A stretch of 64,000 bases of DNA from Pseudomonadota bacterium. Its GTDB lineage: Bacteria > Pseudomonadota > Gammaproteobacteria > Pseudomonadales > UBA5518. A program made the translations under genes and the position numbers. The DNA lies in the NCBI GenBank assembly GCA_963204845.1, contig CAUJIL010000121.1, positions 1,251 through 65,250 of the forward strand. The letters are read 5' to 3'. This document shows, piece after piece, positions 62,735 through 64,000 of this stretch. Numbering within the stretch: the first letter of the stretch is position 1; each line of letters opens with the position of its first letter. Under the pieces are notes generated by a model, which did no database searches, was not told the DNA's origin, and worked only from the letters and a program-made list of their open reading frames with translations.

Positions 62735-63256
62735 ATGAACGAGTGGCAGAGCGTGTTCAGCAACAGCGAGCGCGAGGCGCAACGGCGCTGGGGCGACCCG
62801 GCGGTATGGGACGAGGCGCGCATCACGCGCCTGCTGTGGACCCGGATCCCGCCCGAGTTGCACGCGCGCCTCGAGGCGGCGCCGTTCTTTTTCCTCGCCA
62901 CCAGCGACCGCAGCGGGCGTTGCGACTGCTCGTTCAAGGGCGGCGGTCCCGGACTGGTGCGCATCATCGACGCCTCGACGCTGGCATTCCCCGATTTCGA
63001 CGGCAACCACGCGTTCATGAGCCTCGGCAACATCCTCGATAACCCGCACGTTGGGCTGCTGTTCATCGACTTCGCCGACGGCGGACGGCTGCGCGTGAAC
63101 GGGCATGCCACCATCCACGACGACGACGCCCACCGGCAGTGGTTTGCGCAGGCACGGCGGGTGGTGCGGGTGCAGGTCGAGCAGGTGGTGCCGAACTGCG
63201 CCGCGCACGTGCCGCGGCTGGTCCCCGCCGCACCGGCGGCGGAGGCCGTCCCATGA
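62735..63256 (+). CDS. pyridoxamine 5'-phosphate oxidase (PNPOx)-fold FMN-binding family protein
   Basis: …APFFFLATSDRSGRCDCSFKGGGPGLVRIID..TLAFPDFDGN…LGNILDNPHVGLLFIDF… pattern. The ATG at 62735 has a GGAGG RBS. Confidence 0.7.
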   Translation: MNEWQSVFSNSEREAQRRWGDPAVWDEARITRLLWTRIPPELHARLEAAPFFFLATSDRSGRCDCSFKGGGPGLVRIIDASTLAFPDFDGNHAFMSLGNILDNPHVGLLFIDFADGGRLRVNGHATIHDDDAHRQWFAQARRVVRVQVEQVVPNCAAHVPRLVPAAPAAEAVP

Positions 63257-64000
63257 AGCCCTACCGCGTCACGGTCAACCTCGAACTGACCGCCAAATGC
63301 AATGCGCTGTGCGTGATGTGCCCGCGCGAGGCGATCGTCGCACCGCGCCCGATGCGCGTCGAGGTGCTGCGGCAGGTGGTCGAGCGGCTGGACCCGCGCG
63401 ACGTGTACCGCGTGGTCGTCGCCGGCTACGGCGAGCCGACCACGCATCCACGGTTCGCCGAATGCGTGGCGCAGCTGCGAGCTGCACCCGTGCGCATCGA
63501 CATGGTCAGCAACGGCCAGTTGCTCGACGAGGAACGGCTGGCCTTGCTCGACGGCGTGCTGCACACGCTGATCGTGTCGTTCTCGAGCGTGGACCCCGAG
63601 GTCTACCGCAGCGTGCACGTGAACCTCGACCAGCAGCGCGTGATGCACAACATCGTGCAGGCACAGGCCAGGCTGCGCCATACACGGCTGGCGATCAGCC
63701 TGACGCCGCTCGCCGCCTGCCTGCCGTCGCTGGAGCGCACGATCGCGTGGCTGCGCCAGCACGGCGTCACGCGACTGACGATGTCGCCCACGCTCTACGA
63801 TCGCGCCGGGGCGCTGCACGAGCACGACGATCCGGGGTCGCAGCTGCGCGAACTCATCGCCCGCCACGGGCTGCGCAGCCAGGAGTTCGATTTCGTGCCC
63901 TCGCTGCGCGACGTGTTCGGCCAGTGGCGCCGCAACCGCCACCGCTGCCTGCCGCGCAATGCCGCGCTGCCGATCGCCGCCGACGGCAGTTACCAGTACT
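63253..64000 (+). CDS. radical SAM enzyme, probably with a SPASM/twitch-type C-terminal extension (3' end outside window)
   Basis: Absent from the ORF track because no stop is reached. My own translation: MKPYRVTVNLELTAKCNALCVMCPRE… (CxxxCxxC), …VVVAGYGEPT…, …RIDMVSNGQLL…, and near the edge …HRCLPRNAALPIAADGSYQY. The ATG overlaps the PNPOx stop (ATGA), with GGAGG upstream. Confidence 0.8.
   Translation, partial: MKPYRVTVNLELTAKCNALCVMCPREAIVAPRPMRVEVLRQVVERLDPRDVYRVVVAGYGEPTTHPRFAECVAQLRAAPVRIDMVSNGQLLDEERLALLDGVLHTLIVSFSSVDPEVYRSVHVNLDQQRVMHNIVQAQARLRHTRLAISLTPLAACLPSLERTIAWLRQHGVTRLTMSPTLYDRAGALHEHDDPGSQLRELIARHGLRSQEFDFVPSLRDVFGQWRRNRHRCLPRNAALPIAADGSYQY

Follow-up and report, generated by a model that had tools for sequence, protein, structure and literature searches.

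The 64,000-nucleotide stretch of DNA analysed here, hereafter the window (contig CAUJIL010000121.1 of assembly GCA_963204845.1, positions 1,251 to 65,250), comes from a gammaproteobacterium of the order Pseudomonadales and ends inside a radical S-adenosylmethionine (SAM) gene that is coupled to the gene of a PNPOx-fold flavoprotein. This pair is found beside or inside a widespread operon that begins with a T_hemolysin-family gene, as an accessory module of that operon. Very probably the pair belongs to the pathway or the regulon of the operon. On balance, we favour the view that the radical SAM enzyme is a twitch-type enzyme which acts on a small molecule or a lipid together with its coupled flavoprotein, as an accessory module co-regulated with the operon. 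This judgement leaves aside the step that the pair may carry out there, for which a bypass of one of the operon's own enzymes is weighed below.

Radical SAM and PNPOx genes at the window edge

The initial annotation had described a plus-strand frame open from ATG 63253 to the edge of the window, and translation confirmed it as 249 codons free of stops up to position 64000, beginning MKPYRVTVNLELTAKCNALCVMCPRE and ending …HRCLPRNAALPIAADGSYQY. The motifs it had named were found at residues 16-23 (CNALCVMC), 58-63 (GYGEPT) and 86-88 (SNG), and its proposed radical SAM identity was upheld by Pfam (PF04055, E 8e-15, 55.8 bits against a cutoff of 29.5). As the window has a GC content of 67% and the same DNA carries an antisense open reading frame (ORF) of 452 amino acids, a long open frame alone means little. 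The plus frame is, however, favoured over its antisense rival by homologues, codon composition and substitutions. A full-length protein of 313 amino acids (P0001) is 99% identical to it (E 4.5e-161) and 441 homologues were found in public data, while GC content reaches 0.92 at the third codon position (GC3) against 0.44 at the second (GC2). When compared with the 93%-identical locus L009, 32 of 43 substitutions fell at the third codon position of the plus frame, and the plus-frame protein retained 97% identity (242/249) against 87% (368/425) for the antisense frame. The antisense ORF (62584..63942, minus strand), which overlaps two homology-supported plus-strand genes, was therefore rejected as a gene and is regarded as a high-GC shadow ORF, and the stretch from 63253 to 64000 is almost certainly a genuine radical SAM gene. 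It had been remarked that the gene is missing from the ORF track. It is indeed unlisted there, but for no biological reason, as the listing omits ORFs that run off either end of the source, and its absence is likely an artefact of the window edge. A truncation beyond the window, raised as a possible objection, was not borne out, since two loci with 99.7% identical DNA (L001 and L002) carry the intact gene of 313 codons with its stop codon. The edge cuts off 64 codons, and the 3' end beyond position 64000 was taken from L001, since the 100%-identical PNPOx protein led to short Logan contigs only.

The start codon of the radical SAM gene (ATG, 63253-63255) overlaps the stop codon (TGA, 63254-63256) of the preceding ORF (62735-63256) and has GGAGG 7 nt on its 5' side, so that the ATGA coupling to a PNPOx-fold gene proposed earlier can be read directly in the DNA. 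The upstream protein matched PF01243 (PNPOx_N; E 3e-16, 60.2 bits against a cutoff of 28.1), and a protein 100% identical to it was present among the homologues (P0121). It scored 102.3 bits against a cutoff of 170 with TIGR04025, the MSMEG_1061-family FMN-dependent PPOX-type flavoproteins, to which it is related without being a member. The PNPOx protein is better conserved than the radical SAM enzyme, with 60-87% identity across aligned homologues, and its invariant features include PFFFLATS, C63-D-C65-SFKGGGPG and C155. Of its three conserved cysteines, which may have a metal, Fe-S or redox role, two (C63 and C155) show no variation and C65 is kept in at least 90% of the sequences; C63 and C65 form a C-D-C before SFKGGGPG, and C155 is part of a PNC near the C-terminus. 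The AlphaFold (AF2) model of the protein (pLDDT 81) was matched by Foldseek to PNPOx-like split barrels with TMt up to 0.79, and these bind FMN, F420 or haem (LDB0262, HupZ, the Desulfovibrio FMN-binding protein, Rv2074, HutZ and PhdC). A search of PDB sequences with the protein, both as a single sequence and as a profile, gave no match. FMN is our best guess for its cofactor.

Full-length homologues of the radical SAM enzyme span 309-328 amino acids, and in an alignment of 27 of them the cysteines C16, C20, C23, C156, C232, C250, C285 and C288 are invariant. C156 (codon 63718-63720) is a fifth invariant cysteine that lies outside both cluster motifs and may serve as a further ligand or in catalysis. 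At the C-terminus the alignment (A1) gives C232-X12-G245-X4-C250 … C285-X2-C288, with G245 invariant as well, and the codon of Cys250 is one codon past the window edge. The initial annotation had suspected the beginning of a SPASM/twitch region near the edge; an auxiliary-cluster domain of the twitch type does begin there, but it is not the full SPASM domain of seven cysteines. The full definition is CX9-15GX4C – gap – CX2CX5CX3C – gap – C and provides for two auxiliary clusters, whereas the pattern found here, CX12GX4C…CX2C, holds the first half of the SPASM motif and a single CX2C and has no CX2CX5CX3C second-cluster block. A full SPASM domain was rejected on this count of four C-terminal cysteines and on the Pfam search, in which the SPASM model PF13186 gave no match on the 99%-identical full-length P0001. 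With a cutoff of 21.5 bits, the same model reached 13.5 bits for both P0006 and P0087 and 24.4 bits for P0095. The features that define a twitch domain were all observed, namely the CX9-15GX4C motif, a beta-hairpin, a helix and cysteines enough for one auxiliary cluster; the curated twitch model NF033640 scored 19.7 bits against a cutoff of 170. In the AlphaFold model (pLDDT 84, pTM 0.86) a partial TIM barrel is followed by a beta-hairpin at residues 238-248 (strands 238-241 and 246-248) and a helix at 268-277.

Foldseek matched this model in the PDB to SuiB, SkfB, DesII, viperin, BlsE, anSME, CteB, MoaA, BtrN and PqqE, with TM-scores of 0.5-0.66 and identities of 10-19%, and BlsE was the sole match of a PDB sequence search (E 0.006). 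Judged from its sequence and its predicted structure, the enzyme is a member of the SPASM/twitch clade, of the twitch type, with enough cysteines for one auxiliary [4Fe-4S] cluster. The family has no characterised member and no curated model. No curated NCBIfam model came near its cutoff on the protein, the best being TIGR04317, the radical SAM maturase of a tungsten cofactor oxidoreductase, with 72 bits against 380. The core family forms one full-length representative in a library of 1.84 billion representatives at 50% identity, in which 35 representatives match the family at E <= 1e-30. The sister radical SAM families reached 47-101 bits in the curated-model test, no threshold being attained, and are unnamed too.

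Association and common operator with the T_hemolysin operon

The pair was traced through 80 loci centred on the radical SAM gene, from a scan of one genome per species in which relatives are 49-95% identical. They represent Pseudomonadales metagenome-assembled genomes of the window's own lineage (L009, 95%), Gallionella, Ferrigenium, Rhodocyclaceae such as Thauera, Aromatoleum and Dechloromonas, Sulfuritalea, Thiobacillus, Zetaproteobacteria, Motiliproteus and others, and many carriers of the pair are microaerophiles or denitrifiers. In 68 of the 80 loci the radical SAM gene is directly preceded by the PNPOx gene, with the -4 (ATGA) overlap in 39 of these. The PNPOx gene lies on the 3' side in L054, and no PNPOx gene adjoins in L069, L071, L076, L078, L080, L081, L083 and L088. 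When the neighbouring proteins of the 80 loci were clustered de novo, the recurrent families were PNPOx (70 loci), short-chain dehydrogenase/reductase (SDR; 41), ligase (39), T_hemolysin (38), tetratricopeptide repeat (TPR) protein (34), response regulator (22), haem-oxygenase-like iron-containing redox enzyme (HDO; 22) and histidine kinase (19), with no other recurrent partners. Apart from PNPOx, all of these are members of the operon divergent from the pair in the window. A T_hemolysin gene is near the radical SAM gene in 38-39 of the 80 loci, and the operon is present in 26 of the 43 loci that have at least 6 kb on both sides. The arrangement differs widely between carriers. The pair diverges from the operon in the window, L029 and L077; it stands first and on the same strand in most Gallionellaceae, and last in the operon in L026, L065 and L068; and it lies between operon genes in L053, L055, L058, L059, L064 and L075, as does the radical SAM gene alone in L071. 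The association has thus been kept through rearrangement, and this, the embedding above all, argues for one functional unit.

Pair and operon also have an operator motif in common. The divergent intergenic region of 150 bp contains two direct repeats, TTAACGCCTGCTTAAG (box 1, Table 1) and CTAAGGCCTGGTTAAG (box 2), of the form TTAAG-N6-TTAAG, which resembles the PmrA box. The form is identical to the box published for BqsR, of the BqsRS system that senses Fe(II) (PMC4358008, PMC13522522). The exact repeat occurs once in the 64-kb window against 0.00 occurrences expected, and with one mismatch allowed there are three matches at two sites, all in the divergent intergenic region, against 0.17 expected. 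Across the 80 loci nearly all boxes are less than 350 bp 5' of the PNPOx/radical SAM unit or of T_hemolysin. In L026 and L076, where pair and operon are apart, each unit has its own box, and in L076, L080 and L083, which have no PNPOx partner, the box stands directly before the radical SAM gene. An independent sample of 80 metagenome loci centred on T_hemolysin gave 42 of 48 boxes within 400 bp 5' of T_hemolysin, corresponding to 40 of the 73 loci with testable upstream sequence. The pair is thus very probably part of the regulon of the iron-responsive two-component system encoded in the operon. The regulator of this system, like its relatives PmrA and BqsR, would respond to iron, and would do so by switching on both pair and operon. 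The earlier suggestion that the pair and the hemolysin-family/ligase/diiron/SDR operon make up one larger locus is thus borne out by their co-conservation and common operator. A scan of 62400-62800 for sigma-70 promoters and terminators found nothing, and an Rfam scan of 61500-64000 returned a chance miRNA match only (E 0.35).

The same loci speak to a role in peptide maturation. The initial annotation had placed a possible peptide substrate gene beyond the window, as for a SPASM-type maturase of ribosomally synthesised and post-translationally modified peptides (RiPPs), and peptide modifiers such as SuiB, SkfB and CteB are indeed among the top Foldseek matches. The loci did not support this. 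The radical SAM gene ends 64 codons past the edge, and no conserved small ORF (20-90 amino acids) was found within 2.5 kb of it in the 80 loci, the clusters of small ORFs obtained being either off-frame shadows of neighbouring genes or the PNPOx 5' end itself. Neighbours of the RiPP recognition element (RRE) or PqqD type were likewise not found among the clustered neighbours of the 80 loci. The protein itself, of only 313 amino acids and with four C-terminal cysteines, starts directly with the radical SAM core and has no N-terminal RRE. The genes 3' of it are not conserved and vary even between close relatives, being an SDR and an epimerase gene in L001 and L009, whereas in L003 a convergent DUF3240 gene and genes for RND efflux occupy this place. 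A RiPP role of the enzyme is therefore unlikely, and we give very little credence to a precursor peptide outside the window.

The iron-responsive box could also mean that the pair has an iron or haem role of its own, for instance in anaerobic tetrapyrrole handling, and has merely come under the common regulator. The PNPOx model resembles HupZ and HutZ, which bind or degrade haem, and Rv2074, a biliverdin reductase, and many loci have the pair and a box with no operon nearby. FMN and F420 proteins match the fold equally well, however, the best sequence family is the FMN-dependent PPOX type, and the pair is embedded in the operon in seven loci. The haem-degrading radical SAM enzymes ChuW and HutW, moreover, belong to a different, HemN-like class. 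We consider an independent role of this kind quite improbable.

The operon that diverges from the pair (Table 1) has the same core order in the T_hemolysin-centred sample: T_hemolysin, ligase, HDO, SDR, TPR, response regulator, histidine kinase, cupredoxin and FTR1. ATGA overlaps were observed at T_hemolysin/ligase (61815-61818), ligase/HDO (60298-60301) and SDR/TPR (58793-58796), which suggests tight translational coupling at these three junctions. A relative of the T_hemolysin protein is encoded in 555 metagenome stretches. A PDB search with the T_hemolysin profile gave no match. PF12261 may sit in the GNAT clan; kinship with FeeM-type N-acyl amino acid synthases, however, found no support, as a comparison by hhalign of the T_hemolysin alignment (A2) with the FeeM-like protein of L173 gave a probability of 0.3%, with no secondary Pfam matches. 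No literature was found that links the thermostable hemolysin family (PF12261) with radical SAM enzymes, or HDO with hemolysin. On the 3' side of the FTR1 gene lies an ORF of 235 amino acids (54272-54979, minus strand) with a signal-like N-terminus and no Pfam or NCBIfam match; a syntenic counterpart of the same length, without a Pfam match, is present in L003 (1030-1737).

Other neighbours were noted in some loci. In the Rhodocyclales loci L020, L026, L040, L044 (6413-9463), L046, L082 and L126, the pair is directly preceded by two genes, one for an EptA/LtaS-like membrane protein with a sulfatase domain and one for a PAP2 phosphatase, and an extra TTAAG-N6-TTAAG box stands between these two genes in L040 and L044. 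EptA-like sulfatase and PAP2 genes are types typical of PmrA-controlled envelope remodelling, and their presence hints at a remodelling of envelope lipids. In L009, some 5 kb past the place that matches the end of the window, a BqsR-type box (15858-15873) was found 55 bp 5' of a Kdo/WaaP-family lipopolysaccharide kinase gene (15072-15803, minus strand).

Table 1. Features of the window discussed in the text, with the evidence for each.
Feature	Position	Strand	Evidence or remark
PNPOx-fold (split beta-barrel) flavoprotein gene, 173 aa	62735..63256	+	PF01243, AF2, Foldseek
ATGA start/stop overlap of PNPOx and radical SAM genes, translational coupling	63253..63256	+	sequence
Radical SAM gene, codons 1-249 of 313, cut by the window edge	63253..64000	+	PF04055, P0001 homology, GC3, L009 substitutions
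CNALCVMC codons (Cys16, Cys20, Cys23), CX3CX2C of the SAM-binding [4Fe-4S] cluster	63298..63321	+	translation; all invariant in 27 homologues
Start of twitch-type auxiliary-cluster domain, Cys232-X12-Gly245-X4	63946..64000	+	alignment, AF2 model, Foldseek
Box 1, exact TTAAG-N6-TTAAG direct repeat, BqsR/PmrA-type	62598..62613		~73 bp 5' of homology-supported T_hemolysin start
Box 2, CTAAG-N6-TTAAG, one mismatch	62670..62685	+	50 bp 5' of PNPOx ATG; conserved in L009
T_hemolysin-family protein, first operon gene	61815..62525	-	PF12261, E 1e-45; start by homology, ORF extends to 62582
AMP-forming acyl-CoA ligase family gene, ATGA overlap with preceding gene	60298..61818	-	PF00501, E 1e-42; PF23562
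Haem-oxygenase-like iron-containing redox enzyme (HDO)	59621..60301	-	PF14518, E 1e-33
SDR oxidoreductase	58793..59605	-	NF006565, 325.7 bits against cutoff 238
TPR protein, N-terminal signal-like sequence	58149..58796	-	TPR Pfam matches; weak BstC match, 40 bits against cutoff 350
OmpR-family response regulator	57432..58091	-	PmrA 230 bits, QseB 221 bits, both below equivalog cutoffs
Sensor histidine kinase, QseC/PmrB-like, start approximate	56086..57435	-	QseC 205 bits, PmrB 177 bits, below cutoff
Cupredoxin-like gene	55759-56082	-	syntenic L003 gene PF13473; no NCBIfam match
FTR1/EfeU-family iron permease gene, closes operon	54984-55751	-	syntenic L003 gene PF03239; weak EfeU/Ftr1 NCBIfam matches

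Candidate substrate and relation to the HDO

The most likely substrate of the radical SAM enzyme would be the product of ligase, T_hemolysin-family protein and SDR, predicted to be a small acyl-derived molecule or a lipid. A small molecule is suggested because neither a peptide nor an RRE accompanies the enzyme, and its acyl or lipid nature by the ligase, T_hemolysin-family and SDR proteins, by the secreted TPR protein with its weak likeness to the sterol carrier BstC, and by sister radical SAM families that stand beside FeeM/PlsC-type and GNAT acyltransferases; other sisters lie in an amino-acid gene cluster. One sister family, P0249 (206 bits to the family profile; L173 5856-8044, and L174), adjoins genes for a FeeM/Acetyltransf_5 N-acyl amino acid synthase-like protein and a PlsC-type acyltransferase, a neighbourhood which is an aminolipid-type context. 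For the more distant sisters P0245, P0250 and P0252, the contigs are too short to show their neighbours.

As to the step carried out by the pair, the distribution of the HDO gene offers a lead. In the T_hemolysin-centred sample HDO was present in all 46 operons that span its slot, 45 of which have no pair; a single locus, from the window's lineage, has the pair within 10 kb (one of 24 well-flanked loci). The radical SAM-centred set, on the other hand, includes 12 operons without HDO (L014-L017, L019, L024, L029, L033, L039, L041, L042 and L045), in which the ligase gene is followed by the SDR gene after a gap of 2-280 bp that leaves no room for an HDO gene, and the pair stands at the head of all 12. 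Operons without HDO were thus seen only with the pair (12/12 against 0/45, Fisher p = 1.8e-5), which leads to the proposal that the pair does the step of HDO without O2. The evidence for such a bypass is suggestive only. In this mechanism the 5'-deoxyadenosyl radical would take a hydrogen from an acyl-derived intermediate. The substrate radical would then be oxidised by giving up an electron through the auxiliary cluster, in the manner of the twitch dehydrogenase BtrN, and the FMN protein could return this electron to the SAM cluster or pass it to an acceptor. The net result would be the same oxidative step, in the absence of O2, that HDO performs with it. That the pair is an O2-independent counterpart of the HDO step, by analogy with known enzyme pairs, is a tentative proposal which we rate well below even chances. 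The fuller version, in which the bypass serves an acyl-lipid or signal pathway under control of an iron sensor and the cluster is mislabelled as a 'thermostable hemolysin' one, appears doubtful.

Several points weigh against this bypass and the picture built around it. The operons without HDO all belong to Gallionellaceae, other Nitrosomonadales or Thiobacillus, so that they may represent one or a few loss events, and the Fisher test overstates their independence. HDO and the pair occur together in 24 loci, the window included, and this coexistence fits facultative organisms and an additional tailoring step equally well. FNR/ANR-like boxes were found 5' of the pair in just 3 of 76 loci, giving no sign of anaerobic regulation. 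About 40% of the well-flanked loci have the pair with no operon within 10 kb, and the loci that lack a PNPOx gene show that the flavoprotein is not strictly obligatory. Binding of the boxes by the operon's regulator, and the response to iron, are predicted from family resemblance, and the substrate, chemistry and cluster number given for the radical SAM enzyme are predictions as well.

Some of these points suit a different account, in which the pair would carry out a further tailoring of the operon's product, optional by lineage and chemically unrelated to the HDO step, for example a dehydrogenation, a rearrangement or the formation of a C-C bond. It would explain the 24 loci with both HDO and pair and the lack of an FNR signal, and the presence of the pair in one of the 24 well-flanked T_hemolysin-centred loci befits an accessory module. 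It leaves unexplained, however, why operons without HDO are found only with the pair. We regard extra tailoring as possible, though not as the outcome to be expected. In another account the radical SAM enzyme would be a protein or cofactor maturase that has the flavoprotein as its reductant and modifies or loads a metallocofactor on a further product of the locus, for instance HDO, the iron permease or the cupredoxin. The best curated models, TIGR04317 with the score given above and TIGR04311, are 'maturase' families, if matched far below cutoff, and the locus is rich in metal proteins. In Gallionellaceae, though, the pair heads an operon with no HDO, cupredoxin, FTR1 or two-component genes nearby, and the genes that stay with it are those of T_hemolysin, ligase, SDR and TPR. 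A maturase role is therefore improbable, and a twitch enzyme for a small molecule or lipid of the operon's pathway remains the reading that we favour.

Significance and comparison with known systems

The T_hemolysin operon is widespread and is annotated as 'hemolysin' or as a virulence cluster, its product not having been assigned, and the role of the pair and of HDO, once shown, would assign a function to the whole cluster. The radical SAM family is compact and outside the curated families, its solved relatives being at most 19% identical. It is experimentally tractable, as it comes with a partner flavoprotein, with a companion pathway that is defined and with an operator that can be recognised as iron-responsive.

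Among known radical SAM enzymes, the nearest parallels are the small-molecule twitch enzymes BtrN, MoaA, DesII and BlsE, which likewise have a CX3CX2C core and a truncated SPASM region with four cysteines, and no peptide partner. Foldseek TMt values to the model were 0.60 for BtrN, 0.58 for MoaA and 0.59 for BlsE, and BtrN also uses four cysteines for its single auxiliary cluster. The present family differs from these enzymes in sequence (10-19% identity), in genomic context, in its dedicated PNPOx partner and in the extra invariant Cys156. With the SPASM peptide maturases SuiB, CteB, anSME and PqqE it has in common the overall fold (TMq 0.6-0.66) and the first SPASM half-motif, but unlike them it has no CX2CX5CX3C, no RRE and no PF13186 match on P0001, and no precursor peptide was found for it.

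BqsRS and PmrAB, two-component systems that sense iron, have genes for the envelope and for polyamines under their control. The locus resembles their regulons in the identical TTAAG-N6-TTAAG repeat, in a regulator closest to PmrA and QseB and in its iron-uptake genes, and the box found with the EptA-like sulfatase and PAP2 genes of some relatives is a further likeness to regulons of the PmrAB type. It departs from them in that the regulator of the operon scores below both the PmrA and the QseB equivalog cutoffs, and neither a hemolysin nor a radical SAM gene is mentioned as a BqsR or PmrA target in the literature on the BqsR box (PMC4358008, PMC13522522).

Earlier descriptions of the core operon itself exist for Vibrio cholerae, where it is called the 'dth region', and for Pseudoalteromonas, where it is a putative virulence cluster; they list a delta-thermostable hemolysin, acyl-CoA synthetases, a QseBC-like system and an iron transporter, and neither assigns the cluster a function (PMC12208996, PMC6262041). 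It is the same core operon as in the window, but unlike the window no radical SAM or PNPOx gene is mentioned in these clusters (PMC6262041, PMC12208996).

The bypass proposal, finally, can be compared with two known enzyme couples. AcsF (diiron) and BchE (radical SAM), like HemF and HemN, are pairs of O2-dependent and O2-independent enzymes. The T_hemolysin operon would resemble them in placing an O2-using oxidase and a radical SAM enzyme in one pathway, some lineages having the radical SAM enzyme only, and the likeness is one of analogy, not of homology. If true, the bypass would add a new aerobic/anaerobic enzyme pair to these and would help to find out what the delta-VPH family truly does.

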